Origin: Eledone cirrhosa
Lineage: Eukaryota
Direction: 5' to 3'
DNA: 64,000 nt
Assembly (NCBI GenBank): GCA_964016885.1
Contig: OZ024740.1
Coordinates: 102,796,001-102,860,000, forward strand
In this document: piece after piece, positions 2,006 to 60,251 of the stretch
Numbering within the stretch: position 1 is the first letter of the stretch
Layout of the letters: each line of letters begins with the position of its first letter
Translations under genes and position numbers: made by a program
The notes under the pieces: model-generated
Database searches by the model: none
The model's input: the letters and a program-made list of their open reading frames with translations, nothing else
What the model was told of the DNA's origin: nothing

Positions 2006-2127
2006 AGTTTAGGGATTGTAACGTCAATTTACTGTAGGTTCACCAAAGGGAGCACTCGATGAGCAGTCTCCAGTATGTACTTTGGGGTTATACTAAGCAG
2101 AGTGTAAAAAACTAATAATAATATCAC

Positions 2128-2358
2128 GAGGTGTCAAATTTTCATTACATTTATTGGGGTGTGACTCGCATTTCATGATTGATCAGTTCAAGGTTCGCTC
2201 TGTATCGATCGGGCCCATCTCTGGAATCAGAAGCTCATCAGATTGCATTAACAGAAGTGTGATGAGTTTTTGATTCCAGAGCCCAATCGATACAGATCAA
2301 ACCTTCAGCTGATCAATCGCGAAACACGTGTCACACCTCAATAAATGTAATGCAAATT
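2128..2358. repeat. Fold-back (~100-bp arms) containing an interrupted type I hammerhead motif, probably Penelope pLTR-derived
   Basis: Arms 2137-2241 and ~2260-2358 are reverse complements. Joining GAGGTGTC (2128-2135) to TGATGA (2260-2265) restores GAGGTGT-CTGATGA-(55 nt)-GAAA-CACGTG-TC-ACACCTC, followed by AATAAA. Confidence 0.65.
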
Positions 2359-2386
2359 CATCCATATTATTATTATTATAATTAGT

Positions 2387-2586
2387 AGGGCGGTAGATTG
2401 GCAGTATCGGTAGAGGGTCGGACGCCATACTTTCCAGCATAGTTACGTCCCTTTACGATCTGAGTTCAAATCCCGCCGAGGTTGACTTTGCCTTTCATCC
2501 TTACGGGGTCGATAAAATAAAGTACCAGTAATGCACTGGGTCATTTGCTGGCCTTGTGCCTAAAGTAGAAACAATTATTATTATTA

Positions 2587-2590
<4 letters not shown>
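2387..2590 (+). mobile_element. tRNA-derived SINE, family A, (ATT)n tail
   Basis: A-box-like TGGCAGTATCGG, B-box GAGTTCAAATCC, central GCCTTTCATCCTTACGGGGTCGATAAAATAAAGTACCAG. At least 8 related copies in the window. Confidence 0.88.
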
Positions 2591-2627
<37 letters not shown>

Positions 2628-2628
2628 G

Positions 2629-2722
<94 letters not shown>

Positions 2723-2735
2723 CATATATATACAT

Positions 2736-2795
<60 letters not shown>
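2591..2795. repeat. (TA)n/(TC)n compound microsatellite
   Basis: Direct reading. Confidence 0.97.
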
Positions 2796-2797
<2 letters not shown>

Positions 2798-3512
2798 CTT
2801 ATTAAATGATTCTATGGACATACTTCATTGTATATTGCTCTGATTATTTAATTAATTAATTCGTCATTGAGCCACATCGTGAATGGTTGCCAAAAACATA
2901 TATATATCTATGACTTTGTCTAGTTTGTGTGTATGTAACTCTTTATATTTGATAATCTCCCATAAGGTTGAGATGCAATTTAGGCAATATTAGGCTGCGC
3001 CTTCTAGCAACCAGCCCACTCGCCGTAAGGCACCAATCACATTCTTTCTGACTTGACCACTGCCACGTCACAGTTCTTAGCCATTTTGAATTCGTTTCTG
3101 GCGGGGATCATTTAAGAAAATCTTCGTCCAAGGGAGTTTATTCCCTGATGATTTCGAAGCTCGAGAATTTATCCTTGATCGGATATTACCAAAAGCGAAT
3201 GAAACTCCAAAGGGTAGAAACGTAATCTTGGTATGTTTATATACATTTTTTCTTCTTACTTTAATTTTATACCTAATTGTGTATGGTTGACGATATATTT
3301 AATCGATTTCCACGTGATATTGAAATGCTGGGTAAATATTCTATAGCTGTTGATCGCGAATAGATGGCTGTCGTTTATTTATCTATTATTTCTTCATAGG
3401 TGCCTTTTAATCTTATAGCCTGGTTTAATTGGTTTTTTTGTGTGGTTGATTATGCTAATTGGGAGAGGAGATGGTGTATATATCTTATCAAATGATTCTA
3501 TGGACATACTTT

Positions 3513-3521
<9 letters not shown>
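2789..3521 (+). mobile_element. 686-bp unit bounded by 47-bp direct repeats, with a degenerate HHR-like motif (putative non-autonomous Penelope-like piece)
   Basis: 2789-2835 matches 3475-3521 with 2 mismatches. CTGATGA 3145-3151, GAAA 3201-3204, CTC-CAAA-GGG-TA. Flanked by (TA)n on both sides. Confidence 0.45.
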
Positions 3522-3591
<70 letters not shown>

Positions 3592-4024
3592 AACAATACA
3601 ATATAATTACCTCATTACCAGAGGTTTACCGAATAAGACGAATACAAGAAACGTCCTCATTCGTTGTATGTGTATATATTTCAATCCTTAGTCCCTGAGT
3701 CTGTATGTACACTAACTCTATTATCTTACAATTTCTTTTTTCAACATATATTATATACGTATTTGTGGTCACACATACACTGATATGCTTGTCCTCATGT
3801 ATGTACTTACGAACACATTTTTTCACTATACACATGCATTTGTACATACACACATATGTACATTTGTAGGTGCATATACACACATTTATACACATACCCT
3901 TACTATATTTCCTTATTTTATTTTTATATATCTCTTGCATTACTTTTATTTATAAATTTTTTTGCCCGTTAAACTTTTGCCTTTCTTGAGGAGATTTTTC
4001 AAATATTTCACTATGTTTTAAATT

Positions 4025-4100
4025 GGCTTGTCTGACGAACGAATGAGGACGTTTTTTGTATTCGTCTTATTCGGGAAACCTCTGGTAATGAGGTAATTAT
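4025..4100 (+). ncRNA. Type I hammerhead motif in the 5' pLTR (3' pLTR copy at ~7620-7695 has core CCGATGA)
   Basis: CTGACGA 4032-4038; ~11-bp stem II CGAATGAGGACG/CGTCTTATTCG; GAAA 4075-4078; stem III CCTC/GAGG; GUA triplet ending 4095. Stem I pairing is weak. Confidence 0.65.
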
Positions 4101-4144
4101 ATTGTATTGTTTATTATACATTAAATTTTTAACCAATACTGAAC

Positions 4145-6253
4145 ATGGATAGACATCATTTGGATTACTCCATCAAGAATATCCCAACACCTTCTAACAC
4201 TCCCTACACTAAAATGTTGATAGACAAAATAGAGGAAGTTGTTAAAAGAATGAGATCGAAAGCTTTGATTTTCTATGGACACTTTAACACGGACTCTACT
4301 GAATATTTTGATATCAAGTCTCATAAATACCCGCAAAGAGTAAAAGATATGACCGCTTTTGAACTAGACTTAGTTAATTTAATCAACCAAATCAAATTCC
4401 GTAAGTACTCTAATCCTTTTAAATCTAAACTATCTAACGATATTTCAATATTCAAATCTTCTAAAGATAAGTTCATTTTCTCTGACAAAACTAAAAACTT
4501 ATACGAAGTTAATAATAACTTACATGACCAACTCTTAATAGATAACATCACCTCTAAATACCAAATAGCTAATATAAACACCTATAATACTATTAATAAG
4601 GAAGTTAAAGAATTAGCTAGTTTTTTAAAAAATAGACAATAGAACAGAAAAACTTGCTAAACGTAATGCCTATATCACCCTCAAAGATCACAAACCTGAT
4701 TTTATTAATCGTCCTAGTTGTAGATTAATCAACCTTGCTAAGACTGAAATCGGTCTTGCTAGCCAAAAAATATTCAATAATATAAACAAACATATTATAA
4801 GTAAGTCTGAATTACTCCAATGGATAAATAGCTCTTCCGTAGTACATTGGTTTAATAATATTAAAGATAAAAATAGTTCTAGATTCACCCAATTTGACAT
4901 TGTAGACTTCTACCCGTCTATTACTCACCCTCTTTTAACGAAAGCATTACATTTCGCTAGAAAGTTTATCAATATTTCTGATATTGAAGAGAATGTCATT
5001 TTGCATGCTAGAAACACTTTACTATTTACTAATAATGACACTTGGGTAAAAAAATCTAACCCAGAGAACCCATTCGATGTCTCAATGGGTTCTTTTGACA
5101 GTGCTGGCGTGTGTGATTTAGTCGGCCTATTCCTCCTACACACACTTAAAGAGAAATTCCCTAACCATACCTTTGGGCTTTATCGCGACGATGGTCTAAT
5201 ACTTTCCCATACCACTATAGGCCATAACTTAGATAGATTCAGGAAAGACTTAATAAAAACCATCGCTAGTTTTAATCTTAAAATTACCATTGACACTAAC
5301 CTTTCTAATGTTAATTTTCTAGATATAAACCTAGATCTGCCTACTGCTTCTTATAAACCGTACCATAAACCTAATGAAAATTTAAAATATATAAATAAAG
5401 GCTCTTGCCATCCTCCTATAGTTTTTAAAAGTCTTATCCCTAATATTAGCCGTAGGATCTCCACGCTCTCTTCCTCAGAAGCTATTTTCAATAAGGCATC
5501 CCCCTACTATAATAAAGCCCTTCAAAATAGCGGATTTAGCGAACCGATTCAGTACATACCCAATAATACTAACTCCTTTAAACATAATAATAGGAAAAGA
5601 AAAATAATCTGGTTCACCCCCCCCCCCCCCCCTACTCTTTAGCAGTTAAAACTAATGTAGGCAAAAAATTCCTAGAGCTCTTAGATAAACATTTCCCTAG
5701 AACACATAGATACTATAAGATCTTCAATAGAAACTGTGTCAAAATCAGCTACTCCTGGTCCCCCTATTAAATCTTATATCCTCAATAAGAAAATACCCAG
5801 AGAACATCAAAATTGCTCCTGTAGAGTCAAAAGTGAATGCCCATTACAAGGTAAATGCAACACCAAAGCCATTGTACATGCGGTTAAAGTGACAACCACC
5901 AGCAACAACCTACCAGCCACCAGCGAACGATATGTGGGTATGACACAAGACAAATTCAAAACGCGTTATTACTCACATGTCGCATCTTTCCGACATCCTG
6001 AAAAAAAATTTACAACAGCTCTGGCTAGCAGAATATGGGATTTGAAAGACCAAGGTATCCAATATAAATTAGATTGGTCAATTTTGAACCAATCTAAAGA
6101 ATATGCAAAAGGAACAAGATGCGCACTCTACATAAGTGAAAAATATTGGATTTTACAGAACCTTAAATCACCAAAAACCTGCCTAAATGCAAAAAACAGA
6201 AATTTTCACTAGTTGCCCACACATGAAATCACACTTGCTTTCCAGCTCATATA
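4145..6253 (+). pseudogene. Disrupted Penelope-like RT + GIY-YIG endonuclease ORF
   Basis: YSIKNIP, QFDIVDFYPSI, MGSFDSAGVCDLVG, GLYRDDGL, FLD, CSCRVKSECPLQGKC and YVG motifs, spread over several frames (breaks near 4630, 5620-5640, 5750, 6200). Confidence 0.92.
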
Positions 6254-6749
6254 AACTTAACTCACTTTCAGATACTTATCCTCCATAAACTCTTGTTCTT
6301 CATTTTCCTTAACTTACCTTCTTTACAGACTTCTCTTTCTGATTTACTTTTATTTTTATTTTTAACTTTATTTTTACTTCACATCCAACAGTGACCCCCC
6401 CCCCCCCTGCTTTTTGATTCACTTACTTTATATCTTCACAATTTTACATATTTTACTTCTCCCTTTTCTTTCACTACCTGATATCAAATGTCACTTGCGT
6501 TTTCAACTCCAGATATATTCTGTTGTCCCTCAGCCGCTTTTAAGTATGTTTACTTGCGTATAATTTGTACTCATTTATTCATACGGCCGGTATGTATGCG
6601 TATAAGTGTGCATATGTGTGTATGCGTGTTTGTATATGTATACGAATGCATTTGTATGTGCGCGTGTATGTGTATATGTGTGTGTGTATGTGTGTTTTTA
6701 TATCTATGTTTTTTACATACTTATATATATATGTGTGTGTGTGTATATG

Positions 6750-6842
<93 letters not shown>

Positions 6843-7945
6843 GTATGTATATATATGGTCGCGTGGGTGCGTGTGATTAGATGTAGATGTATGTATATAT
6901 ATGTGCTTCGTGTGTATGTATGCGCGCTTTTGTATGTATGTACGCATGTATGTGCTTTTGTCTGTACGTTTTTATATATATATTTATATATATATGTGTG
7001 TGTACGAACCTCTGTATGTTTTCTATTTTTTCTAGTGTTACTTTATAATTGATAACCCCTCCCTCTTACTTTCTCTTTGATTTAATTTTTTTATTCTCAT
7101 ATATTTTTTCATTTTTCAATTTCATATTTTATATTTTTATATATGTATCGACCTTCAGCCTGACACTGCTTTGACTGATACACTCCCTTCCCTGTATATA
7201 TATCACATGCATGTATGTGGTTGCGCGTGTGTGTGTGTTTATACGCGTGCTTTCATACTTGTATGTGTATATGTTTCAATCCTTAGTCCCTGAGTCTGTA
7301 TGTACGCTAACTCTATTATCTTACAATTTCTTTTTTCAACATATATTATATACGTATTTGTGGTCACACATACACTGATATGCTTGCCCTCATGTATGTA
7401 CTTACGAACACATTTTTTCACTATACACATGCATTTGTACATACACACATATGTACATTTGTAGGTGCATATACACACATTTATACACATACCCTTACTA
7501 TATTTCCTTATTTTATTTTTATATATCTCTTGCATTACTTTTATTTATATAATTTTTTGCCCTTTAAACTTTTGCCTTTCTTGAGGAGATTTTTCAAATA
7601 TTTCACTATGTTTTAAATTGCCTTGTCCGATGAACGAATGAGGACGTTTTTTGTATTCGTCTTATTCGGGAAACCTCTGGTAATGAGGTAATTATATTGT
7701 TGTTTATTATACATTAAATTTAGCTCTGTAACTTACATAGAGCACTCTTCACTCCTATGACTTTTTCAATTTTCAACGGAAACTTCAATACTTTTATATA
7801 TACATATATATATGTAGAAGTTATATTTAATTTGTTGGGATACAACAAGCAAATATTTTTATAACTGATATAAAGCACTCAACAATTTTTTGGAGCAAAA
7901 ATACAATATATTAACAAATGTAAACTATGTTTATAAAACCATATT

Positions 7946-8010
7946 TATTTCATTATACATATTTCAAGGACACCAAAGCAAATTATGGTGCGCTTTCATC
8001 AGATAAAATA
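7946..8010 (-). ncRNA. Type I hammerhead motif (mirror copy)
   Basis: Reverse complement of 8022-8086, with one stem II change. Confidence 0.7.
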
Positions 8011-8021
8011 TATTTATATTA

Positions 8022-8086
8022 TATTTTATCTGATGAAAGCGCACCATAATTTGCTTTGGTGTTCTTGAAATATGTATAATGAAATA
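8022..8086 (+). ncRNA. Type I hammerhead motif with minimal stem III
   Basis: Stem I TATTTTAT/ATGAAATA; CTGATGA 8030-8036; stem II AAGCGCACCA/TGGTGTTCTT; GAAA 8067-8070; T-ATGT-A; AUA triplet. Confidence 0.7.
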
Positions 8087-8229
8087 AATATGGTTTTATA
8101 AATATAGTTTCCATTTGTTAATATACTGTATATATATATATATATATATATAAATGAAAAGTATAGAAATTGTTGTAGCGAGAAGCTAACAGTATTCTAT
8201 AACATATGGAATATATATATATATATATT

Positions 8230-8665: not shown

Positions 8666-11600
8666 ATCATTATCATCATCATCTTCGTTTAACGTCCATC
8701 TTCCACGCTAGCATGGGTTAGATGGGAGGTGTCCCACTTGAGGCAAGGTTGGTCGGGTGGCCGTGTCTCACTCATATAGGACTATCTGGCAGGTTTTCTA
8801 CGGCTGGATACCATTCCTAACACCAACCACATTTACAGTGTGGAACTGGGAACTTTTTACCGTGTTACCTACACGACCACATTACAGCGTGGACTGTGTG
8901 TTTTTTTGTCGTGACACCTACACGATATCGATCTCAATCTCATTATCTCATTTATTTGGACTGGATGTTGTGGTACCAATTTTACAGAGAGGTGGGAGTG
9001 GGAGGATAGGGTAGGGGTAGTAGATTGGGGTGTATATTTGGTTAAGAGGTGCCTACTGACTGTAGGTTTCAATTTGAACATAGGCAATGCGGGTCTTCTG
9101 TATTACTGCGTAGCGCCAAAGATCTCGGTCCAGTGACATTGTCTTAGAGAGGCGCAAGTGTGTAAGGTCGGAATTTATCAAATCGTCCCAGGTTTTTCTG
9201 GGTCTACCTACTCTGTAACTACCATCAATTTTGATTGCCCTGCACTTTTTTATACAGCTGTCCTCTTTCATGCGCATCACGTGACCATACCAACGTAGTC
9301 TTCTCTCAAGTAAACAGCCTCTGATCCCTCTTATTCCTAATTTCTCATTTAGTTCATTTATGCTTTGCCATTCACGCATATTACTATTACACATCCAACG
9401 GAGCATGCAAGCTTCATTCCTTTCCAGTCTGCGCAGGTCCTCTGCACACAATGCCCATGTCTCACTGCCATGTAGCATTGCTGTTCATATACAGGCATCA
9501 TACAATCTGCCTTTCATTTTTAGAGAGAAACCTTTAGTGGCCAATAGTGGTATAAGCTCTCTGAACTTTTTCCATCCCGTTCTGACTCTGGCTACTTTAC
9601 TTTCAGAGCACCCTCCACCACTGCTGATTTCGTTACCCAGGTAACGAAAAGTGTCCACTATTTCTATAGAACCATCTGGGCAATAGAAGGAGCTAGTATC
9701 CTGTGGGCACTTGCTACTTAGTGCACCTGAGCATCGGCCACATATAAAATCTACGTTCTTTACCTGTGATCCCACTACATCTTTTATAGTTTGCATTTGG
9801 GACATAAAATGGAATTTCTGCCTACCTTTCCTACACAGTGAACATGCCATTTCCCTGAGGGCACCTGTGCCCTATTTTCATTTCTACAAACCAGAACTTT
9901 AGTCTTAGACAAGTTAACTTTAAGGCCTTTTGATTCTAGGCCATTCTTCTATGTTTGGAATTTCTTCTCTAGTTCAGCCATTGATTCAGTTATGAGAGTT
10001 AGATCATCTGCGTATAGGAGTTCCCTTGGGCAGCCGGTCTTGAACTCCTCTGTTATAGCCTGAAGAGCAATAATAAATAGGAGGGAGCTAAGGACAGAGG
10101 CTTGATGAACACCAACTTTTACACTAAATTCTTCACAATATTCATTGTTAATTCTAACCTTACTGACTGTTTCATTATACATAGCTTGTATAGCTCTCAC
10201 AAGCCATTCATCTACACCTAGTTTTCTAAGAGCCCACCAGATCATGGAACGGGGCACTGTGTCAAAGGCTTTCTCCAGGTCTACAAAAGCTAAGTAGAGG
10301 GGTTTACTTTTAGCTAAGGACTTCTCCTGTAGTTGTCGTACAAGGAAAAGAGCGTCTGTAGTAGTTTCACCTGACACAAACCCAAACTGCATTTCATCTA
10401 TATCAATTCGCTCTCTTATTAGTTGTGCTATAACTCTTTCTGTGACCTTCATGACCTAGTCAACTAACTTAATGCCACTATAGTTTCCCCTATCTAGAGC
10501 ATCCCCTTTACCCTTGTAGCAGTTAATGATGATGCTGCTACACCAGTCTTTTGGTATGACCCCATTCTGTATTACTTGGTTAACTATACGGGCGACCATA
10601 GTATGTCCCGCCATTCCAGATGCCTTCAACATCTCAGCAACTATCGCCGAAGGCCCAGCTGCCTTGCCTGTCTTCATATCTTTGATTGCCTTACTTATTA
10701 TACTACCTTTAACTTGTACCGCTGGTCCTTCTGTTGGATCGATTTGGGGCAGACCATCTTTTTCCTATTTATTCTCCTCATTTAATAGTCTCTCGTAGTG
10801 ACACTTCCAAGCTACCTTCTTATCAGTATCAGTGAGGGCAAGTACACCATTATCATTATGGACACACTTCTCCCCGACAATATCACGGTTTTCCTTGACA
10901 CATTGTCTAGCAATCCTGAACACCTCACATTTTTGGTCGGTCCTCACGTTGTAGAAGATGTTTGAACTTTCTATCCTCTGCTTCCCTTTTTCCAAGGTAC
11001 ACTTGTCTCCTAGCTTCTCTCCTGGCCACTTGATAGTGTTCTCTACTTCCCCCATTCTGCCATACTTTCCAAGCCTGCTTTTTGGCCTTGATTGTCTCCT
11101 CCACCTTACTGTTCCACCACCAAGTTACTCTCCTCCTGCCAATAGGTCTGCTCCAGCCACAGATTTCATCCGTTGCTTTCAGCAAGTTCACTTTCAAGAA
11201 TTCCCACTGTTCCTCTATATTGCATGTCTCTAATTGCTCTTTCTTATTGTCAAAGGCATCAAGTAATAAGCTTTTAAATTTGTCACTGGCTATGGGGGTC
11301 CTTCAATTTCCATATTCTTCTCCTCAAGGTAGGCCTCCTCTGTCGTCGAGTACGTCTATTCTTGACTATGAGGTCACTAACTACTAGGCTATGTTGGGAG
11401 GTGCATTCTTCACGGGGAGAGGATTTAGTGTTTACAACAGACACTTTGTCACGTCTTCTAGTAAGAATATAATCTATCTGGCTGGCGTGTTCCCCTGATT
11501 TATAGGTGATCAAATGGTTTTCTCGTTTTTTGAAGTTTGTGTTACAGATAGTTAGGTTATTAGCGTCACAGAATTCCAGGATTCTGAAGCCCTCCTCATT

Positions 11601-14446
11601 TCTATTTCCAACCCCATTGCCTCCATGTATTTCATCATAGCCATCACTATGTTGTCCAACGTGACCGTTTAGGTCGCCAGCAATAATTAAGTAGTTGCTG
11701 TTGGTTATTTGGTAGGCAGTGTGCGTTAGAGTCTCATAGAACCTGTCCTTTATAACGTCAGGTAGACCAGATTAGGGTGCATAAGCGGATATTATTGTCA
11801 CAGTAGTTCTATTTAGAACTAGTCTTATTTTAATTATTCAACCATAGAATTTACACCTGCAATGCTGCGACGACACCTTAAAAATAAACGCAACCATGCC
11901 TCTCCTGGTCGGTCTTGATGGTGTTACGTACCTGCTTCTTAAATGTGGTGGGTATTTCCTTCTGCACCAGCTATCACGCTTCTTCCAATTCTGTCTGAAC
12001 AACGGTGCTACTCCAGAACAGTGGAAAACTGCCAGTGTCATTCCTCTGTTCAAAAAGAGTGACCGCACATCACCTGTGAACTATCGTCCAGTCAGTCTTA
12101 TTAGTTGCATTGCCAAACTGATGGAATCCTGTGTCAGAGAAACATTTTGGAACTTCTGGAACTCTCACAGTCTTATCCGGCCCTCACAATTTGGATTTAT
12201 CCCCAACACCAGCTGCTGTGATCCACTTATCGAGTTTCTTGAAGACATCACCCGGATCACTGATGGCGGCTCATGGGTGGATGTTGTTTACCTTGACTTT
12301 GCGAAAGCTTTCAATTCTGTGCCACACAAAAGGCTTACAGCAAAACTCTCTGCAATGGGTGTGAGGGATGATCCCTTTAACTGGTTGAAGTCCTTCATTC
12401 TCAGTCGAAGAGAGGTAGTCACGGTTCTGGGACAGCATTCCTCACCATATGAGATGTCATCTGGTGTACCACAGGGATCTGTCCTTGGCCCCCTTTTGTT
12501 TGTGGCATATATTAATGACATAGATGCCAACTTAAAGAATGCCACAGTACTGAAGTACGCAGATGACATCAAGCTGTACCTTGAGATAAAAAGGACAGAT
12601 CCTGAACACTATAGATCTTGCTTGCAGTCTGACCTGAACACAATGCAACAATGGATCTCAGACTGGCAACTCAAGCTAGCTGTGGACAAGTGCACCACCA
12701 TGCATTTTGGGAGTAAAAACCCAGCGTCCACATACTCCCTCCACAGCACTAATATCAAGAAGTTTTATTGTGAACGTGACCTGGGCATTACGGTCAGCAG
12801 CGATTTGCGTTGGACGAGGCAAGTCTCTAAAATTGTCAAGAGGGCTGAGGGTGTCTTAGCATCACTCAGCAAGACCTTTGTCAGCCGCTCTCCAGCTATC
12901 TATTTAAAGCTGTAAATGGCTATGGTGCGACCACACTTTGGTCACCAGTCTGGAACCCCTATCTTGCTCAGAACATTGACCGCCTAGAAACTGTTCAGAG
13001 ACGTGCCACCAAGTGAATACCCTCCACCAGGCATCTACCATACTCTGAACGCCTTGCTTCCTTCCCTGGGCATGGATACATTGAAGCTCCGACGCCTGGC
13101 AACTGACTTTGTAAACACCCACAAAATTATTAACCATCTTGCCAACAACAACCCTGAGTACCTTTTTGATTTCCATGTGTCTAACACACGTGGGCATGCC
13201 CACAAAATCAGAAAACAGCACAATTCCCATGACTTCCAGAAACATTTGTTCACGCTCAGAAGCATGGAACAAACTACCTGCATCAGTCGTTAGCTGTCGA
13301 GTCACTGCATCCTTTAAAACCTCCATGCTTCTCGAGATTCGCCAACACTACACCTAATGTTCCCCCTCCATACATACACACATGTATATCATGACCCATA
13401 CGCTATTCACTTCCCTGACATTTGTATATTATTCTATGTACTATACATGCACCTTTGACGAGTTGTAGTGCACCTGAGCACTTTACACAATAATTTCATT
13501 ATTATTATCGTTTTTTACCCACGATGAATCTGGCAGACCCACCTCTCCACCTAGTCTCTTGAACACAACAAACTTCAACTTCTTTACGTTCAAGCATCTC
13601 TACAACCTCATTTGAGCGACCTTTCAATGTGCCTACGTTCATGGTACCAACTCTGAAGCTGGGAGGGTGAGATGGATGGGTTGGAGGGGCAGGGAGGGGT
13701 GTGGGGGACGGAATTATGTTGGTCATCCGTGTCTGAAATAAAGAGGGGTCCTTGTATTCTCGTCCTGCAGCGGGAGGTGAATTTATCTTTATCTGTGACA
13801 TTGTCATTGAGTGTTTAGTCTTTCCAAATTCCGCAGCCCACCCATCAAACAGGTATAAACTTAAAGAATAGTAAACGAAGTGGTAGCTTTGCTATACTGA
13901 TTTGTAAGAGAACTTACTATAAGCCGTTGAGTTATGATTGGACCATATAGCAATGGTGGTGTGTGGAAATGGGTAACTTTAGGAGAAGGTTAGCTTTTAG
14001 GAAGGGTCCAACAGAATGAGACATATTATTAAAAACATGTAAAATATTAATTGAAAATCCAAGAGAAAAACGGAGAATTTGAATTCTAGACTGGCATAAA
14101 TAGAAGTTTAAAACACTGCTCATTGAGTGAACTACAGGTAAAAGGAAAGACAAGTGTTTTGCTTACATTCTCAAAATCGACAGATCGTCCGTAAGATAGA
14201 TTAGTTAGATAAATTCTGTGTTTGGAACCCAGCAAAGTTTATTTTATACTTGCGAGCAGACGAGGGTGGGGTACGAGAGAAGGAGCAACATTTTACAAAA
14301 TTAGCGAGCGAGATGAAGGAAGGTTCTAGAATAATTAATTAATAATAATACTAGAAGGTTAGTTTTTAGGAAGGGTCCAACAGAATGAGACATTTTATTA
14401 AAAACGTAAAATATTAATTGAAAATCCGAGAGAAAAACGGAGAAAT
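8666..14446 (-). mobile_element. Near full-length decayed RTE LINE interrupted by a CR1
   Basis: APE (RVGTMNVGTL, CVQETRW, AGDLNGHVG), RT (QFGF, FVDLEKAFD, LLYADDL) and C-terminal fragments from 13807 to 9053, with stops and frameshifts. (GAT)n tail at ~8666-8685. 5' region with direct repeats to ~14444. Confidence 0.93.
11840..13507 (+). mobile_element. 5'-truncated CR1-type LINE inserted in RTE
   Basis: NYRPVSL, YLDFAKAF, SGVPQGSVLGP, YADD, ERDLG, NTRGH; 3' UTR and (ATT)n tail. Confidence 0.94.
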
Positions 14447-21672: not shown

Positions 21673-24482
21673 TTAGGTGTAGTATTGGCGAATCTCAGGA
21701 AGCATGGAGGTTTTAAAGGATGCAGTGTTTCGACAGCTAACAACTAATGCAGGTAGTTTGTTCCATGCTTGAGCAACTCTGAGCATGAAAAAATGTTTCC
21801 GAAAGTCATGGGAACTGTGCTGTTTTCGGACTTTGTGGGCATGCCCACATGTGTGAAACACATGGAAATCAAAAAGGTACTCAGGGTTGTTGTTGGCAAG
21901 ATTGTTAATAATTTTGTGGGTGTTTACCAAGTCAGTTGCCAGGCGTCGGAGCTTCAATGTATCCATGCCCAGGGAAGTAAGGCGTTCAGAGTATGATAGA
22001 TGCCTGATGGAGGGTATTCGCTTGGTTGCACGTCTCTGAATAGTTTCCAGGCGGTCAATATTCTGAGTAAGATAGGGGTTCCAGACTGGTGATGCAAATT
22101 CTAAGTGTGGCCGCACCATAGCCATGTACAGCCTTAAATAGATAGCTGGAGAGCGGCTGACAAAGATCATGCTGAGTGATGCTAAGACACCCTCAGCCCT
22201 CTTGACAATTTTAGAGACGTGCTTCGTCCAACGCAAATCGCTGCTAACCGTAATGCCCAGGTCACGTTCACAAGAAGACTTCTTGATATCAGTGCTGTGG
22301 AGGGAGTATGTGGATGCTGGGTCTTACTCCCAAAATGCATGGTGGTGCACTTGTCCACAGCTAGCTTGAGTTGCCAGTCTGAGATCCATTGTTGCATTGT
22401 GTCCAGGTCAGACTGCAAGCAAGATCTACAGTGTTCAGGATCTGTCCTTTTTATCTCAAGGTACAGCTTGATGTCATCTGTGTACTTTAGTACTGTGGCA
22501 TTCTTTAAGTTGGCATCTATGTCATTAATATATGCCACAAACAAAAGGGGGCCAAGAACAGATCCCTGTGGTACACCAGATGACATCTCATATGGTGAGG
22601 AATGCTGTCCCAGAACCGTGACTACCTCTCTTTGACTGAGAATGAAGGACTTCAACCAGTTAAAAAGATCATCCTTCACACCCATTGCAGAGAGTTTTGC
22701 CATAAGCCTTTTGTGTGGCACAGAATTGAAAGCTTTCGCAAAGTCAAGGTAAACAACATCCACCCATGAGCCACCATCAGTGATCCGGGTGATGTCTTCA
22801 AGAAAATCGATAAGTTGGTCAAAGCAGCTGGAGTTGGGGATAAATCCAAATTGTGAGGGCCGGATAAGACTGAGAGTTCCAGAAGTTCCAAAGTGTTTCT
22901 CTGACACAGGATTCCATCAGTTTGGCAATGCAACTAGTAAGACTTACTGGACGATAGTTCACAGGTGATGTGCGGTCACCCTTTTTGAACAGAGGAATGA
23001 CACTGGCAGTTTTCCACTGCTCTGGAGTAGAACCGTTGTTCAGACAGAATTGGAAGAAGCGTGATAGCTGGTGCAGAAGGAAATACCCACCACATTTAAG
23101 AAGCAGGTACGTAACACCATCAAGACCGACCAGGAGAGGCATGGTTGCGTTTATTTTTTAGGTGACGTCGCAGCATTGCAGGTGTAAATTCCATGGTTGT
23201 AATAGAGTCCAGTGTCATAGGTGGTGGAGACGGTACACTCTGGTCTTCAATAGTGAAAATGCCTGCATAGCATTCAGCAATGAGCTCTGCGCATTCCTTG
23301 GGGTCGTCAGTAACCTGGCTTGTGTGGGGATTATGAAGAGGACCGACTGGAGAGTGAGGCCTCTGCTTTGAGTGAACATACTTCCAGAACACCTCACTGT
23401 CAGGGCTGGTTGCTATGCGCTGCTCAAATTGAAGCACTGCCTTTTTTGTCACCTGCTTGAGGTGGTTGGACGATTTATTTCGCCTCTTCCTATTGATGTC
23501 TGATTTGTGCAGTTTGTACTCACGTTCAGCATTGCAACGTTCTTTTCTGGCAAGACGGACTGCTGCAGTCTCCCAAATTGCACTTTTGGGATGTTTTTTC
23601 CGCTTACGTGGCACCGATGCTGCACATGCTGTCCATATTGAGCTCAGGATGTTCTGGAGTACAGTGTTGACATCTTCAGAGTCGTAGAACTCAAGCCAGT
23701 TTGGACGTTGCAGCTCGGTGCAGTAACAGTTCCAGTCTGCTTTATTCCAGTCAAAGTGAGCAGTTTGGAGATGGTTGTGGTTCTTGTTACTTCCCATGAT
23801 CAGAGTCACCTAAAGGTTCCTCAGCAGTAACACTAATGACCGTTTCAGGAGTAGTGGTGAAGAGTAGGTCCAAAGTGTTGTCACCTCTTGTTGGGAAGGT
23901 GACTACTTGGGACCAATTCGAGTCCAGCACTAGCTCAAAGAAGTCATTTGCACTTGGCGGCCAACGAAAGGTTTCCCAGTCAATCTCAGGGTTATTGAAG
24001 TCTCCTGCAATAAAAACATAAGTGGCTGTTTTCCTGGCAGCAGCTCTGAGGATATCACAAAGTTGAGTGTCCTGATGGTAATTTGGGGGACAGTAAACGA
24101 CTCCAAGTAGCAGTGTTGACATGGTCATACGTATATCGCAGAAAAAAACTTCCTGCTGTGATTGGTTCAAATCAACACAAGGAATTGCCGACAAATTTGA
24201 CCAAACGTAGACCATTACACCACCACCACCACGATTAATGCGGTCTTTACAAAACAGGTTGTAGCCAGTTATGCTGAAAACCCCATCACAGAGTAAGGGA
24301 TGTGCCCAAGTTTCCGTGACTGTAATGAAGTCAGGGTTGATACTTTTGACGTAGGAGTCAAAAAGATGAATCTTATTGCTTAGACTACGTGCATTCAAGG
24401 ACAACAATTTGTACCTTGATTCCAGTATATGATTATGTTCAGGGGATGGCAGGTTGTTCTGATTTAGTTTCCCAGAGTTTTT
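21673..24482 (-). pseudogene. CR1 ORF2 (APE endonuclease + RT), frameshifted
   Basis: LNARSL, VTETW, AGDFN, TLDL, SDH, NYRPVSL, QGSVLGP, YTDD; several frameshifts. Confidence 0.92.
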
Positions 24483-25701
24483 TCAGTTTTTTTTATTGTG
24501 AGTTGTTGTGGGTACAGTGTTTTCAGACCAGCTGGTATCTCTTTTCCACGTTTCACCAGCCTTAACAAACTTCCATATCTTCCCATCATCACGTAGGCTG
24601 AAGCTTTCATGTTCTGCCGAGCTGCGGTTTAAGGAAGCTGCAGCACGCAACTTTGGGCCGACATCAGGTGGAAGACCAGTGCGTGTTCGGAAAGCAATCC
24701 GACTTTCACGCCTAACTTTATCAGAGGCTAAAAGGTATGAACGTGCCTCAGTTGAGTTCGAAAAAGACAGTCTAATTAGCCTGGGTTTCGGGCCTGGTCG
24801 GCCAAGGCGTAGAGCACCCTTCGCGGGAGCGCAGCCCAAGTCTTTGGATGAACTGGCAACAAATGCCTGAAGATCAACTATGTCTTCTGGTACACCAATG
24901 GAAATCACTTCGTGGTTTGCAGATTCAGTGGCATTCTTAATGCGTCTAGGTTCAACATGAGGTACGCGGAGATTTTTTAACAAGGCAGTCCGGTAAGATC
25001 CCTCATTGTGAGGTTCTACACGAACACTTGATTTTATTCCCGCTATTTCTCGGTTTAAAGCGGAAATCATTTGCCGTATTTCCTCAAACTCCGTATTGAC
25101 AGTCGATTTTTGTTGCTGTTCTTCTTCTTCAGCAGGCATGGTAGGGGAAGACATAGTCGTCGGTTGATGTTGTTGAAAAGTAATGGGGGAGGAAGACATG
25201 GGTTGCTGTTGTTGATGAAGTCCTTCAACGGGGCTAGTAGCAGAAGCTACGGTCGTTGGTTTTTGCTGTTGTTCAGGAACAATGGTAGAGGAAGACACGA
25301 TCTTCGGTTTTTGTTGTTGTTGTTCAGGAACAATGGTAGAGGAAGACATGATCTTCGGTTTTTGTTGTTGTTGTTCAGCAGCAATGGTAGAGACAGACAT
25401 ACAGTCCAGGCACTGAAAGGACCAATTTGTTAGCTGGATCATCTCCCAGAGTCCATCCATCTTAGCAATATGATATTTCTTGCTTTGGCCTGGGATCTTC
25501 CGGAAGCCTGTGGCACATTGAAGGTAGACAGATGCAACAGGTTCCACATTCGACCCAACGATTACGGAACGAGTTTTCGGGTTCCGTACAGATATGGCAG
25601 GTGTGATTTTCTGGGCAATGTTCTATTTTGGAACATCGACCAGTTTTGTCGCATACTTCATCCATGGATATCACCATGGCAATTTTGTTATTTCTGCCCA
25701 T
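24483..25701 (-). pseudogene. CR1 ORF1 with N-terminal PHD-like finger (frameshift near 25530)
   Basis: ATG 25701 (MGRNNK). CHIC...WVECGTC / LQC...WSFQCLDC, SSSTIVPEQQQQKPKI repeats, RLG..PRLIRLSF. Confidence 0.8.
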
Positions 25702-32666: not shown

Positions 32667-35600
32667 AATAATGAAATTATTGTGTACAGTGCTCAGGTGC
32701 ACTACAACTCATCAAAGGTGCATGTATAGTACATAGAATAATGTACAAATGTCAGGAAAATGAACAGTGTATGAGTCATGATATAATAATAATAACAATA
32801 ACAATGAAATATTGTGTAGTGCCCAGGTGCACCACAACTCATCAAAAAGTGCATGTACAGTACATAGGGCAATGCACAAACATCAGGAAAATGAACAGTG
32901 CACGAGTCATGATACACATGTGTATGGAAGGGGTACATCAGGTGTAGTTTTGGCGTATTTCGGGAAGCATGAGTGTCTTAAAGGATGCAGTGTCTCGGCA
33001 GCAAACAACTGACGCAGGCAGTTTGTTCCATGCTTCAGCAACTCTGAGCATGAAAAAATGTCTACGAAAGTCATGGGAGCTGTGCTGTTTTCTGATTTTG
33101 TAGGCATGTCCACGTGTGTTAGACACATGGAGATCAAAAAGGTGCTCAGGGTTGCAATTGGTGAGATGGTTAATAACTTTGTGGGTATTCACCAAGTCCA
33201 TTGCCAGACGTCGGAGCTTCAATGAATCCATGCCCAGGGAAGCAAGACGTTCAGAGTATGGTAGGTGTCTGATGGAGAGTATGCGCTTGGTTGCACGTCT
33301 CTGAACAGTTTCCAGGAGGTCAATGTTCTGAGCAAGATAGGGGTTCCAGACTGATGATGCGAATTCCAACTGTGGTCGTACCATAGCTGTATACAGTTTT
33401 AAATAGATGGCTGGAGAGTGGCTAACAAAGGTCTTGCTGAGTGATGCCAAGACACCCTCGGCCTTCTTGACAATCTTAGAGACATGCTTTGTCCAACACA
33501 AATCGCTGCTGACAGTAATGCCTAAGTCACGTTCACAAGAGGACTTCTTGATATCAGTGTTGTGGCGGGAGTATGTGGACACTGGATTTTTCCTCCCAAA
33601 ATGCAAGGTGGTACACTTGTCCACAGCCAGCTTCAGTTGTCAGTCTGTCACCCATTGCTGCATTGTGTCCAGGTCTGATTGTAGGAAAGAGTTGTAGATT
33701 TCAGGATCAGCCCTTTTGATTTCAAGGTACAGCTTGATGTCATCTGCATATTTCAGTACCGTGGCATTCTGTAAGTTGGCATCTATGTCATTAATATATG
33801 CCACAAACAAAAGGGGACCAAGAACAGATCCCTATGGTACACCAGATGACATCTCATATGGTGAAGAATGCTGTCCTAGAACCGTGACTACTTCTTTTCG
33901 GCTGAGAATGAAGGATTTCAACCAGTCGAAAAGATCATCCCTCACACCCATTGCAGAGTTTTGCCATAAGTCTTTTGTGTGGCACAGAATTAAAAGCCTT
34001 AGCAAAGTCAAGGTAAACAACATCCACCCATGAGCCGCTGTCAGTGATCCGGGTGATGTCTTCAAGGAACTCGATAAGCTGATCACAGCAGCTGGAGTTA
34101 GGGATAAATCCAAACTGTGAGGGCCAGATGAGGCTGTGAGAGCTCCAGAAGTTCCAAAGTGTTTCTCTGACACAGGATTCCATCAGTTTGGCCATACAGC
34201 TAGTAAGACTGACTGGACGATAGTTGACAGGTGACATGCGGTTGCCCTTTTTGAACAGGGGAATGACACTGGCAGTTTTCCACTGCTCCGGAGTAGCACC
34301 ATTGTTGAGACAGTACTGAAAGAAAGAAAGAAAGCTGGCGCAAAAGGAAATACCCGCCACGTTTGAGAAGCAGGTATGTAACACCATCAAGACCAGGGGA
34401 GGCATAGTTGCGCTTATTCTTAAGGTGACGTCGCAACATTGCAGGTGTAAATTCCATAGTTGTTATGGAATTTGATGTTAGAGATGGTGGAGATGGTACA
34501 TTCTGGTTTTCTACAGTAAAAATACTTGCATAGCAATCAGCAATGAGTTCTACCACATTCTTTGGGATCGTCAGTGATCTGGCTTGTGTGGGGATTGCGA
34601 AGAGGACCAACTGGAGAGTGAGGTCTCTGCTTTGAATGAACATATTTTCAGAACACCTTACTGTCAGGATTGGTTGCTATGCACTGTTCAAATTCAAGCA
34701 CTGCCTTCTTTGTCACTTGCTTGAGATGGTTAGAAGATTTATTCCGCTTTTTTCTCTTGGCATCTGATTTATGCAGTTTATATTCCCGTTCAGCGTTCCG
34801 ACGTTCTCTCCCGGCAAGTCGGACCGCTGAAGTTTCCCAAATTGCACTTTTAGGGTGTTTTTTTTCTGCTTACGTGACACCGATGCTGCACACGCTATCC
34901 ATATTGAGTCCAGGATGCTCTGGAGTATAGTGTTCACATCTCCAGAGTTATACATCTCATGCCAGTTTGGGCGCTGTAGCTCAGTGCAGTACAAGTTCCA
35001 ATCTGCTTTCTTCCAATCAAAGCAAGCAGATTGGAGATGGTTCTGGTTTTTGTTGCTGCCCGCAAGAGCCAGATTGGCAATGATAAAAGCATGATCAGAG
35101 TCGCCTAGAGGTTCCTCAGTAGTACAACTGATAACCACTTCAGGAGTAGTGGTGAAGATCAGGTCCAAAGTGTTGTCACCTCTTGTTGGAGAGGTGACTA
35201 CTTGTGACCAGTTTGAGTCCAGCACTAGTTCAAGGAAATCGTTTGCACCTTGTGGCCAACGAAAGGTTTCCCAATCGATCTCAGGATGATTGAAGTCACC
35301 TGCAATAAACACATAAGTGGCTGTTTTCTTGGCAGCAACTCTGAGGATATCGCAAAGCTGTGTGTCCTGATGGTAGTTTTGGGAGGGGGGGGGGGGGGGG
35401 GGCGATAAACAACACCAAGCAGAAGTGTTGACATGGTCATACGTATGTCACAGATAAAACTTCTTCCTGTGATTCGTTCAAATCAACACAAGGAATTACC
35501 GAAAAGTTTGAACCAACGTAGACCATCACACCACCACCACGGCGATTAATGCGGTCCTTGCGGAAAATGTTGTACCCAGCTGGTATCTCTCTTCCACGTT

Positions 35601-53470: not shown

Positions 53471-54285
53471 TGATCTTTTTAACTGGTTGAAATTCTTCAT
53501 TCTCAGCCGAAAAGAGGTAGTCACGGTTCTGGGACAGTATTCTTCACCATATGAGATGTCATCTGGTGTACCACAAGGATCTGTTCTTGGTCCTCTTTTG
53601 TTTGAAGAAGACCGAGGGTGTCTTGGCATCACACAGCAAGACCTTTGTTAGCCGCTCTCCAGCCATCTATTTAAAGCTGTATACAACTATGGTACGACCA
53701 CACTTGGAATTCGCATCATCAGTCTGGAACCCCTATCTTGCTCAGAACATTGACCTCCTGGAAACTGTTCAGAGACATGCAACCAAGCACATACCCTCCA
53801 TCAGACACCTACCATACTCTGAATGCCTTGCTTCCCTGGGCATGGATTCATTGAAGCTCCGACCTCTGGCAACTGACTTGGTAAACACCCACAAAGTTAT
53901 TAACCATCTTGCCAACAACAACCCTGAGCACCTTTTTGATCTCCATGTGTCTAACACACGTGGACATGCCTACAAAATCAGAAAACAGCACAGCTCCCAT
54001 GACTTTCGGAAACATTTTTTCACGCTCAGAGTTGCTGAAGCATGGAACAAACTGCCTGCGTCAGTTGTTAGTTGCCGAGACACTGCATCCTTTAAAACCC
54101 TCATGCTTCCCGAAATTCGCCAAAACTACACCTGATGTACCCCTTCCATACACATGCACACGTGTATATCATGACTCATGTACTGTTCATTTTCCTGATG
54201 TTTGTACATTACCCTATGTACTATACATACACTTTTTGATGAGTTGTAGTGCGCCTAAGCACTGTACACAATATTTCATTATTAT
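53471..54285 (+). mobile_element. 5'-truncated CR1 with an internal deletion at ~53604
   Basis: QGSVLGPLLF joined directly to KKTEGVL; VRPHLEF, NTRGH; 3' UTR and ATT tail. Confidence 0.92.
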
Positions 54286-56131: not shown

Positions 56132-59100
56132 TCATCATCATCATCATCATCAACGTTTAACGTCCGTGTTCCACGCTTGCATGGGTTTGGACGGGGGTAG
56201 TCCCACTTGAGGCAAGAGTGATTGTCTTGCTCGCATAGGACTGTCTGGCAGGTTTTCTACAGTTGGATGCCCTTCCTAACACCAACCACATTTACAGTGT
56301 GGGTCTGGGAGGTTTTTACCGTGTTGCCTACACGGCCACATTACAGCGTGGACTGTGTGTTTTTTTGTCGTGACACCTACACGATCTCATTTGTTTCGGC
56401 CTGGATGGCGCGGCACCAACATAACTTTACATAGAACGGGGTGGTGTGGATGGGGTGGGGGTGGCGGCGGGAGGGGTGTATTTTGTTAGAGATGCCTACT
56501 GGCAAGGCGGGTCTTCTCTGTTACTGAGTACCGCCAAAGGTCACGGTCCAGTGACATTGTCTTGGAGAGGTGTAAGTGTGTGAGGTCGGAGTTTATCAGC
56601 TCATCCCATATTTTTCTAGGTCTGCCTATTCCGTGGCTACCGTCTATCTTTATTGCCCTGCACTTTGTAATACAGCTATCGACTTTCATGCGCATCACGT
56701 GTCCATACCAACGCAGCCTTCTCTCAAGTAAACAACATCTGATCCCTCTTATCTCTAATTTTTTCCTTAGTTCGTTTATGCTTTGCCGTTCACGTATATT
56801 ACTGTTACACATCCAGCGGAGCATGCAAGCTTCGTTCCTCTCTAGTCTGCGTATATCCTCTGCACACAATGCCCAGGTCTCACTACCATGCAACATTGCT
56901 GTTCGTATGCAGGCATCGTACAACCTGCCTTTCATTTTTAGGGAGAACCCTTTAGCAGCTAATAGTGGTATAAGCTCTCTGAACTTTTTCCAACCAGTTC
57001 TGACTCTAGCTACAGTACTTTCAGAGCACCCTCCCCCACTGCTGATTTTATCGCCCAGGTAACGGAAGCTGTCCACTATTTCTATAGAACCCTCTGCGCA
57101 ATTGAAAGAGCTAGTATTTTGTGGGCACTTGCTGCTACTTATTGCACCAGAACACCGGCCACATGTAAAGTCTATGTTCTTAGTTAGCTTACCTGTGATC
57201 CCACTACATCTTTTATGCACCCATACTTTGCATTTAGGACATAAGATGGAGTTTCTACCTACGCCTTTCCTACATACCGAGCACGACCATTTCCCAGAAG
57301 GGACCGCCGCCTTGTTTTCTTTCCTACAAACTAGAACTTTGGTCTTAGCCAGGTTAATTTTAAGTCCTTTTGACTCTAGGCCGTGCTTCCATGTTTGGAA
57401 TTTCTTCTCTAGCTCGGCCATTGATTCCGCTATGAGTGTCAGGTCGTCTGCGTATAGGAGTTCCCATGGGCAGCCTGTCTTGAACTCCTCTGTTATAGCC
57501 TGAAGGGCAATAATAAATAGTAGGGGGCTGAGAACAGAGCCCTGATGGACGCCAACTTTTACGCTAAACTCTTCACTATATTCGTTGTTAATTCTAACCT
57601 TGCTGACTGTTTCTTTATACATGGCTTGTATAGCCCTCACAAGCCATTCGTCAACGCCTAGTTTTCTAAGAGCCCACCAGATAATGGAGCGGGGGACTCT
57701 GTCGAAGGCTTTCTCCAGGTCGACAAAAGCTAAGTAGAGGGGTTTACCTTTAGCTAGGTACTTCTCCTGTAGTTGTCGTACTATGAAAAGAGCGTCTGTG
57801 GTGCTTTTGCCTGACACAAACCCGAACTGCATTTCATCTAGATCAATTCTCTCTCTGATTAGTTGCGCTATTACTTTTTCCGTGACCTTCATGACCTGGT
57901 CGATTAATTTAATGCCTCTATAGTTACTCCTATCTAGGGCGTCTCCTTTACCCTTATAACAGTTAACGATGATGCTGCTATGCCAGTCCTTCGGAACAAC
58001 CCCATTCTGTACGACTTGGTTAACTATGCGGGTGACCATGGTGTGTCCCACCGTGCCAGATGCCTTCAGCATCTCAGCAACTATTTCCGAAGGCCCAGCC
58101 GCCTTACCAGTCTTCATATCCTTGATTGCCTTACTTATTATACTCCCCTCGACTAACACTGCTGGTCCCTCTATCGGGTCGATAAGGGGGAGACTGTCTT
58201 TCTCCCATTTATTCTCCTCATTTAGTAGCCTTTCATAGTGACACTTCCAAGCTACCTTCTTATCAGTGTCGGTGATGGCAAGTATGCCATCATCGTTAAG
58301 TACACACTTCTCCCCGACAATATCACGGTTTTCCTTGACGCATTGCCTGGCAATCCTGAACACCTCACGTTTTTGGTCATCGCGTTGTAGAACATGCTTG
58401 AACTTTCTTTCCTCAGCTTCCCTTCTTGCTAAGTACACTTCTCTCCTAGCTTCCCTCCTGGCCACTTGATAGTCTACTCTACTTCCCCCATCCCGCCATA
58501 CTTTCCAAGCCTGCTTTTTGGCCTTAATTGACCCCTCCACCCTATTGTTCCACCACCATGTTACTCTCCTCCTGCCTACAGGCCTGCTCCAGCCACAGAC
58601 TTCGTCTGTCGCCAACAGCAGGTTTGCTTTCAGAAATTTCCACTGTCCCTCTATATTGTCCGATTCTAGATGCTCTTCCTTACTGTCGAAAGCATCAAGT
58701 AATATGCTTTGAAATTTATTTCTGGCTGTGGGGTCCTTTAGTTTCCATATTTTCCTCCTGAGGATAGTCCTCTTCTGCTGTCGGGTGCGTCTCGTCCTGA
58801 CTATGAGGTCGCTAATTATCAGTCTATGTTGGGAGGTGCATTCTTCATGGGGGAGGGATTTAGTGTTTACAACAGACACTCTGTCACGTCTTCTGGTAAG
58901 GATATAATCTACCTGGCTTGTGTGTTCCCCGGATCTATAGGTAATCAGGTGATTGTCACGTTTTTTGAAGTTAGTGTTACAGATAGTTAGGTTATTTGCA
59001 TCACAGTATTCCAGAATTCTGGAGCCTTCCTCATTTCTAGTACCAAACCCATAGCCTCCATGGATTTCGTCATAGCCGTCACAATGTTGTCCAACGTGAC

Positions 59101-60251
59101 CATTTAGGTCGCCTGCAATAATTATATAGTCACTGTCAGATATTTGGGAGGTAGTTAGCAACAGTGTCTCATAGAATCTGTCTTTTATAGTGCCGGGCAG
59201 TCCGGATTGGGGTGCGTACGCAGATATTACTGTCACCGTAGTTCTATTGAGGACAAGTCTTATTTTAATTATTCTGTCGTTCACTCTATTTACGTCTATT
59301 ATCTTATCTGCCCACTTTTCTGCTACCATGATTCCTACTCCACCCAGCCCATCGTCGTTTCCCACCCAGAAAAGCTTATAACATCGTTTTTTACCCTCAA
59401 TGAATCTAGCAGACCCACCCCTCCACCTGGTCTCTTGAATACAACAAACATCGACCTCCTTACGTTCAAGCATTTCTACAACCTCGTTAGCGCGACCCTT
59501 TAGGGTGCCTACATTTATGGTACCAACTCTGAAGTTTTGGGTTGCGTTTGGAGGGTGGGGGTGGTGGGGGGCGGGAGGAGATAGGGTTATGTTAGCCATC
59601 CGCGGACGAAACAAAGAGGAGTGCTCGCATTCTCGTCCACGAGGTGAATTTGACTTTAACTTTGGCATTTTCGCTCTGGGCGTCCAGATTTTTCTCTCCC
59701 TTCCACTCTCCAGGATTCCGCAGTCCGTCCGTCCATCCATCCATCCATCATATATCGAAGGCAACCGGGCAAGCGATAGTATAGGCCTCTGGCTTATGAT
59801 TTGGTCCGCGTAATAATAATAATGGTGATGCGTGGGGGTGGGGGTGGGGGGCTCTGGCTTATAATAATGGTGGTGATGCGGGGGGGGGGGGGGCTCTGGC
59901 TTATGATTGGTCCACGTATTAAGTATGGTGGCGTGTGGGGGCGGGAGGGAGGGGTGTGGGGTAGCTAGCTGGAAGGTTATGAATGTTTAACAAGCGATTT
60001 AACAAAAAGCAAAACTGCAAGATTTGTTCTGTTCAATACGACAAAAACACCGTATTTAAACCTTAAATAGATAACAAAAAAATACAGATTTCGGATTTTG
60101 CGAGATTGGATGTTTGTTTGGACTATGTACGGAATTGAGCGTGGAAATGGAGAGAAGAATTGTACTTTACGATTTACATGAGTCCATCATAGAAATAATT
60201 GAAGCAGCGGTGGATTGGCGAAAGTGGATAAACATGAAGGAGAACTTATCT

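Follow-up and report, generated by a model that had tools for sequence, protein, structure and literature searches.

5' ends of fold-back Penelope-like element copies in Eledone cirrhosa cluster at family-specific edges, probable transcription starts, and are not fixed by the hammerhead ribozyme

The window analysed here is a 64,000-nt stretch of the 3.0 Gb genome of Eledone cirrhosa (assembly GCA_964016885.1, contig OZ024740.1, positions 102,796,001 to 102,860,000). It carries three inverted duplications (fold-backs), all of them real, that belong to three families of Penelope-like elements (PLEs), here called A, B and C. Each involves the pseudo long terminal repeat (pLTR) of its family, with hammerhead-like motifs. 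An interpretation made earlier from the letters of the window alone (the sequence-only reading) recognized these three inversions correctly and proposed that the ribozyme core fixes the point at which they turn. We found that the 5' ends cluster strongly, with a distance from the core base C3 that differs between families (-1 to -14 in B, -6 to -25 in A, -55 to -74 in D and -71 to -90 in C), and that the ribozyme does not fix the turn.

We suggest that the fold-backs are head-to-head pairs of 5'-truncated pLTR copies and that the family-specific edge at which they end is probably the 5' end of the messenger RNA (mRNA), i.e. the transcription start, reached by reverse transcriptase (RT) that likely primes within the 5' copy of the pLTR and then runs off its template. 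The copies stand head to head with one tail per pair, their ends have a sharp upstream edge with promoter-type motifs at it, and where edge and core lie apart there is no excess of ends at the core or at the predicted ribozyme cut.

Sampling of copies and mapping of 5' ends

An exact-anchor search with the 3' part of each pLTR gave 2,959 matches for B, 15,746 for C and 55 for A. We took every one of the 55 A matches and, for each of B and C, the 100 at the head of the list; 98 B, 99 C and 55 A copies were kept; the B sample leaves out the window's own two B matches. More hammerhead families came from a motif scan of 1.04 Mb of sampled sequence. Families D, E and H (14,651, 6,628 and 2,256 anchor matches) served as an outside test, with 62, 54 and 62 copies, respectively, made up of the first listed and of chance finds in other loci. 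The predictions for D and E were written before the search.

To place a 5' end, we aligned the copy from its anchor to whichever long natural copy in a panel scored best; positions are numbered with C3 as 0 and upstream positions negative. Mapping to a single reference was dropped because it produced spurious peaks where subfamilies border on each other (at -262 in B and -47 in C), and longest-extension mapping because it ran too far into (TA)n. Prior to counting, we reassigned 11 ends of C and four of A by eye, where subfamily structure or divergence had misled the call, and removed a single duplicate from each of C and E. The final set spans six families that bear a hammerhead and holds 428 copies, of which 198 count as short, with an end within -140. 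The core window is C3-15 to C3+10.

5' ends cluster at a family-specific edge

The best 20-nt windows hold 17/27 short ends in B (-16 to +3), 27/55 in A (-25 to -6), 15/29 in D (-74 to -55) and 32/60 in C (-90 to -71). The scan test gives p=0.0002 in each of these families, which bears out the earlier claim that breakpoints are not uniform. The core window is enriched in short ends in B (17/27) and A (15/55), and not in C (3/60), D (5/29), E (2/14) or H (1/13). Pooled, the latter four families have 11/116 short ends there against 16 expected, and 9/77 inversion-joined ends against 10.7 expected. Family C alone has three of its 45 inversion-joined ends in the core window (6.4 expected) and 21 between C3-91 and C3-77.

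The same was found for C copies directly flanked by (TA)6 genome-wide: 95 reverse-strand loci end at -80 to -90, 12 at 0 to -10 and 39 at the predicted cut. The k-mers are retained in 11/64 and 24/88 of the sampled C copies, giving corrected ratios of about 12 and 14 fold. The C ends thus do not pile up at the predicted cut (39 TA-flanked loci vs 95 at the edge, the cut k-mer being the commoner one), and ribozyme cleavage as the source of the ends was rejected for C; in A and B the cut site lies within or next to the anchors.

For family D, the window written down before the search (-64 to -85) captured 9/29 ends (p=0.004), or 7/26 without the copies already seen (p=0.02). Four D ends lie at +1 to -10 (loci L302, L310, L322 and L399), near an initiator-like site at -5 that is present in 28/30 long copies; two of the four are joined to long arms. 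These ends could reflect a second start or a weak effect of the ribozyme.

It has to be considered whether the hammerhead fold stalls RT or triggers a template switch at the CUGANGA strand. The enrichment of short ends in the core window in B and A, the 8/15 inversion-joined B ends found there, and the four D ends near the core are what a stall would give. Against it stand the counts for C, D, E and H, singly and pooled, and the inversion-joined A ends, of which 3/18 lie in the core window with 2.2 expected, i.e. no excess. The B ends, moreover, lie at or beyond the last hammerhead strand that RT copies and not on the 3' side of the fold, which it would meet first. Naiad PLEs form inverted 5' copies without canonical hammerheads (PMC8557442), and the product size of PAc, a Poseidon element of the anole, is unaffected by ribozyme mutants (PMC11167929). 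We regard a stall or switch at the ribozyme as very improbable; families C and D largely refute it.

The predicted starts of A and B lie 12-25 nt before C3, and the turn therefore looks ribozyme-centred in these two families. Where both arms of an inverted pair are short, one of them or both end in the core window in 6/13 A, 2/5 B and 3/22 C pairs, so that the ends of A and B in the window are typical of their families and that of C is atypical. By the same count, at least one arm ends at the edge in 18/22 C and 8/8 D pairs. That all three fold-backs in the window turn near the core is partly a family rule and partly chance and selection.

Promoter motifs at the edge

The ends lie mostly on one side of the motif-defined +1. 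Within 15 nt downstream and upstream of it, respectively, there are 16 vs 0 ends in B, 26 vs 1 in C, 16 vs 6 in A and 5 vs 0 in H, and for inversion-joined ends only 8 vs 0 in B and 21 vs 0 in C. In a scan of 201 positions for YYA (A at +1) with RGWYV at +27/28, B gave only -12 (60/62 long copies), and C gave -88/-89 (18/25 long copies) plus -108 in five. Family A has TCATTY, with its A at C3-25, in 4/5 long copies, and TATATA 30-31 nt upstream in two, so that 2/5 have both motifs. An initiator together with a downstream promoter element (DPE) at +28 or a TATA box at -30 was in this way found at the edge in B, C and A. The D edge lies between motifs at -98 and -57, which we take to be NRF1-like and YY1-like, respectively.

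These layouts resemble what is reported for other PLEs, in which the mRNA begins within the pLTR at a point upstream of the hammerhead (PMC2377424, PMC4209133). In brief, Penelope of Drosophila virilis has the DPE RGACGTGY and an intron donor 46 nt after its mapped start, at position 371 (PMC2377424). Chlamys-3_cRei also has a mapped start, and has no hammerhead. Its motifs are matched in B and C, for which the start is predicted, not mapped; in 37/39 C copies a GTAYGT donor lies 43-45 nt past the predicted start A. The TATA plus initiator layout of A is like that of Pen2a_Av (PMC3846280). The conserved GTAYGT of family C begins at C3-46, with a first AG in the ribozyme core region and another past the ribozyme. 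Judged from these signals, the C hammerhead may lie partly or wholly within an intron. We did not find spliced C copies among 87 local matches.

The edge may instead be a 5' end of RNA other than the transcription start, or a block to RT. It could be set by RNA processing at a site particular to each family, by a protein bound there, or by structure that forms locally upstream of the ribozyme. Such an end or block would produce the same one-sided edge, and in C a small palindrome lies just inside the edge. Speaking against it, the edge in B, C and A coincides with promoter motifs in their canonical spacing, and in C the ends are found beyond the palindrome. We consider this alternative unlikely.

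Ends might also cluster only through microhomology between AT-rich element sequence and the (TA)n target. Many non-inverted ends do abut (TA)n, and the B edge is AT-rich. The edge nevertheless recurs in the inversion-joined arms, the partner of which is not (TA)n (21 vs 0 in C and 8 vs 0 in B), the most TA-rich stretch of C (-1 to -35) is depleted in ends, and the D edge is CA-rich. Microhomology as the sole cause is very improbable.

Inverted pairs and a proposed mechanism

We listed 79 inverted pairs, 32 of which were not fully readable. The other 47, read at both ends, comprise 41 with one tail, six without a tail and none with two; the three units in the window also have one tail each. Tails were scored by tail markers, as alignment-based calls of 3' ends were too noisy. 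The prevalence of a single tail fits what has been shown in vitro for PAc, which cuts both strands of its target and starts RT at two internal sites that bound the tail (PMC11167929). Ribozyme cleavage is unneeded in that system, and templates shortened at the 5' end give shorter products (PMC11167929). The scheme proposed below for the copies described here would share with PAc a pair of sites, one at each tail end, where RT starts, the cutting and extension of both strands, and a product length that the template's 5' end determines; the available parts of the PAc study, by contrast, give no genomic map of 5' ends and no link to the transcription start (PMC11167929).

Of the 41 one-tail pairs, 18 carry the tail on whichever arm reaches less far at the 5' end. 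A single cDNA (complementary DNA) snapping back on itself, a scheme related to the self-priming model (PMC3846280), would not be expected to yield these 18 pairs, and was rejected although it fits the remaining ones. Another candidate, a second RT that lags so that the tail arm is the shorter, found no support: the counts are 18 vs 18, or 31 vs 18 (p=0.085) when 13 partners that start downstream are added. These 13 further partners could not be placed upstream; 11 were checked and start downstream of the ribozyme, and are therefore invisible to a ribozyme-centred reading.

We propose the following sequence of events. An endonuclease would cut both strands of an AT-rich target, and each end would prime its own cDNA, one beginning at the start site at the end of the pLTR and the other at that at the end of the tail. 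Priming in the 5' pLTR would give run-off cDNAs of 100-280 nt, much like retroviral strong-stop DNA, which would end at the cap or a few bases short of it, the edge being the transcription start. Priming in the 3' pLTR would give the long copies. The 3' ends of the two cDNAs would then be joined head-to-head with little or no homology. In retroviral minus-strand strong-stop DNA synthesis, priming is internal, near the 5' end of the RNA, and is followed by run-off; in twin priming of L1, two cDNAs from two target ends result in an inversion. PLEs differ from both in that they have neither a tRNA primer nor a true long terminal repeat (LTR), and in that both arms would start at the element's own 3' start sites.

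A more general version, which we put forward tentatively as something short of an even chance, is that PLEs make a strong-stop-like cDNA by RT priming in the 5' pLTR of their own mRNA and running off at the cap. Such cDNAs might be joined head-to-head, inserted alone (solo pLTRs), or carried to the 3' pLTR, thereby regenerating a partial tandem that bears a promoter. If so, the genomic 5' ends map the transcription start of each family from DNA alone, and PLE replication shares a step with LTR elements.

The short copies could instead derive from short non-autonomous RNAs of solo pLTRs, transcribed from the same internal promoter in the manner of short interspersed nuclear elements, and not from the 5' pLTR of full mRNAs. 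This version shares the edge as transcription start and differs only in the source RNA. Short copies starting at the edge do retain the initiator-DPE region, and family A is nearly without long copies (2/55 ends beyond -41, and no long copy that might hold a linked open reading frame (ORF) among the 55). Long copies exist in C. Short arms are, on the other hand, often joined to long or ORF-bearing arms (B in the window, loci L051, L142 and L244). We think a solo-pLTR source improbable.

Several observations weigh against the edge as a transcription start reached by run-off. Family H is marginal, with 6/13 ends in its best window (-54 to -35, p=0.06), and its initiator-like site at -49 is one of four. 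Family E has no peak (best window 4/14, p=0.78), and the prediction made for it captured 3/14 ends (p=0.23). The D peak (-55 to -74) overlaps the predicted window only in part, the core window holds five D ends (3.9 expected), which neighbour the initiator-like site at -5, and an initiator paired with a DPE or a TATA box was found in neither D nor E. The A peak is broad, and the copies of this family are about 85% alike. The arm with the tail is as often the longer as the shorter of the two (18 vs 18). The transcription starts are motif predictions, and the motifs of A, B and C were chosen after the ends had been seen. It should also be noted that the samples of B to E and H are first-listed copies, nearly all from a single contig (C1), and not a random sample of the genome, and that end calls are uncertain by a few nt owing to microhomology, in addition to the ends reassigned by eye and the two duplicate rows removed.

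The three fold-backs in the window

The features of the three units are as follows.

2006-2241, reverse strand: inverted arm of family A, running from C3 (2241) through the 3' end of the pLTR and a tail of about 105 nt (2006-2110)
2242-2378, forward strand: direct arm of family A, starting at C3-17, without tail; the C3 position of its core (2259) is G
3582-3665, reverse strand: inverted arm of family B, starting at A9 (C3+6), without tail, ending in (TA)n
3666-4131, forward strand: 5' pLTR copy of family B, starting at C3-366/-368; hammerhead-like motif with C3 at 4032, predicted start A at 4020, DPE-like GGACG at 4047-4051
4133-6250, forward strand: ORF of family B (putative RT plus GIY-YIG-type endonuclease), broken by frameshifts, with the Hydra-clade motifs DKT and CxCX5C
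7259-7721, forward strand: 3' pLTR of family B; hammerhead-like motif with C3 at 7627, predicted cut after 7682, initiator-like A at 7615
7722-7792, forward strand: tail of family B, at the 3' end of B only; the same sequence follows the 5' pLTR in a longer copy (L056)
7812-8012, reverse strand: inverted arm of family C, starting at C3-10; full hammerhead-like motif (C3 at 8002) and a tail of about 90 nt (7812-7900)
8013-8131, forward strand: junction (8013-8019) and direct arm of family C, from C3-10/-15 (about 8015/8020); full hammerhead-like motif (C3 at 8030), without tail, ending in (TA)n

The A fold-back has a single junction, 2241|2242, at which the left arm ends at C3 (with 1 nt of ambiguity) and the right arm begins at C3-17. 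A contig of 145-152 nt crosses it in 3/3 sequencing runs of one sample. The sequence-only reading placed a turn at 2135 as well as at 2241, both at C3; 2241 stands, and 2135 is no breakpoint, because gaggtgtc (2128-2135) is, by comparison with related copies, the reverse complement of the normal 3' end of family A. The inverted arm continues past 2135 through the tail to about 2006. At the right end of A a very high-copy repeat resembling a short interspersed nuclear element is inserted (2384-2575, depth above 1,000,000). Short interspersed nuclear elements of this genome look octopus-like.

The B unit is a 4.2-kb element with direct pLTRs and an adjoining inverted 5'-truncated copy, which is the layout of endonuclease-bearing (EN+) PLEs. 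Its turn had been read as 3665/4038, at the last A of CTGACGA. The inverted arm, 84 nt in length, does end at this A (C3+6, or up to +8 given a shared 2-nt TT), and its partner begins at C3-366/-368, so that the two arm ends are 372 nt apart. The ORF matches RVT_1 with E=5.9e-4, below the curated cut-off; the endonuclease part has no Pfam match and its motif was identified by eye. At 4131/4132, between 5' pLTR and ORF, this copy is short of about 165 nt (tail plus linker) relative to L056, with a short T-rich stretch shared at the joint.

The C turn was described correctly as lying about 10 nt before C3, although its left arm, with the tail, is longer than had been claimed. The further claim of hairpins of about 230 bp with a ribozyme on both strands does not fit the 4.2-kb B element, and C is the one fold-back of the three with a complete motif on both strands. 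The inverted arm of B lacks CUGANG; in A the core of the right arm reads GTGATGA, a change at C3, and from the left arm the 5' strand of stem I is missing.

Hammerhead motifs

The motifs in the window appear, from their sequence, to fit the minimal PLE hammerhead (PMC4209133): the type I core (CUGANGA plus GAAA, with a U-H site) is present, apart from the changed C3 in the right arm of A. Checking them against Rfam hammerhead models, as had been proposed earlier, gave no match to a hammerhead family for the A, B or C regions at E up to 10, nor was a hammerhead among the matches listed for an Rfam scan of the whole window. The C(U/C)GANGA core is kept in 84/90 B, 71/87 C and 17/31 A copies. Stems I-III fold in B, where sequence changes are mostly one-sided. 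The inner stem II of C is fully paired in 58 of the 61 copies parsed (of 87), with one compensatory change, a C-G to U-A exchange between subfamilies. Stem I of A is only about 2 bp long.

A fourth hammerhead-like motif (3145-3212) lies in an older repeat at about 2800-3520, bounded by a direct repeat of about 33 nt (2800-2832 and 3487-3519), and the upstream part of this repeat resembles a family found in L129 and L178. At least ten hammerhead-bearing repeat families are present in about 1 Mb (loci L066, L086, L096, L099, L104, L129, L191 and L273); in several of these stem II is 40-90 nt long, and some look canonical. Fold-backs of other families occur in the upstream flank of L275 and in the flanks of L237 and L273. 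One of these turns 1 nt before a CTGATGA core and the others within stem II.

Relation to known elements

The architecture described here is already known for PLEs, including Naiads without canonical hammerheads (PMC8557442, PMC3846280). The window units resemble the EN+ PLE insertion unit in the head-to-head inverted copy, the partial tandem, the tail at one end, the (TA)n targets and the solo pLTRs; the tails are 70-105 nt here vs 30-40 nt in known EN+ PLEs (PMC8557442, PMC3846280). Family B is probably close to the Hydra clade, with which it shares a short ORF, DKT (as SDKT), the CxCX5C linker (as CSCRVKSEC), a putative C-terminal endonuclease, a hammerhead motif and insertion in (TA)n, and the RWK motif of that clade reads RSK in the broken copy in the window (PMC8557442). 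Non-LTR retrozymes are likewise derived from pLTRs and carry a type I hammerhead, but they are head-to-tail arrays (10.64898/2026.07.22.740005). We rejected this identity for the window units, which are head-to-head and not joined cut-to-cut; the C ends, as shown above, are not piled up at the predicted cut.

The available text of the EN+ PLE papers treats 5' truncation as variable, with no preferred end (PMC8557442, PMC3846280). Very short Chlamys insertions are reported without a map of ends in the part of PMC9977147 at hand, and that of PMC8969392 holds nothing on PLE 5' ends. No preferred PLE 5' end turned up in the literature searched, which did not extend to subscription papers and figure supplements. 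The locus contributes the separation of the edge from the ribozyme in C and D and the match to promoter motifs.

The D. virilis Penelope paper sees no obvious mechanism for pLTR regeneration (PMC2377424), and how inverted pLTRs form and partial tandems are rebuilt is stated to be open (PMC2377424, PMC3846280). If the transcript start is where short copies end, and each known RT start site primes one arm, a direct test becomes possible and the hammerhead is removed as cause. Apparent ribozyme-centred breakpoints seen in other genomes can then be a side effect of a nearby promoter.

Other repeats in the window and in sampled loci

Family E anchors L345-L348 (contig C1, 14.38-14.39 Mb) recur head-to-tail every 4,147 nt, i.e. 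as a full-length tandem array. In the window, an open frame of 1166 amino acids (56486-59986, reverse strand) has endonuclease and RT-like parts and presumably belongs to an RTE-like long interspersed nuclear element (LINE); fragments of the same family lie at about 1000-1730 and 9090-9740. A LINE family with two ORFs, which we take to be CR1/L2-like, is present as fragments at 21673-25622 (reverse strand), 11848-12915, 32938-35447 and 53521-54135.

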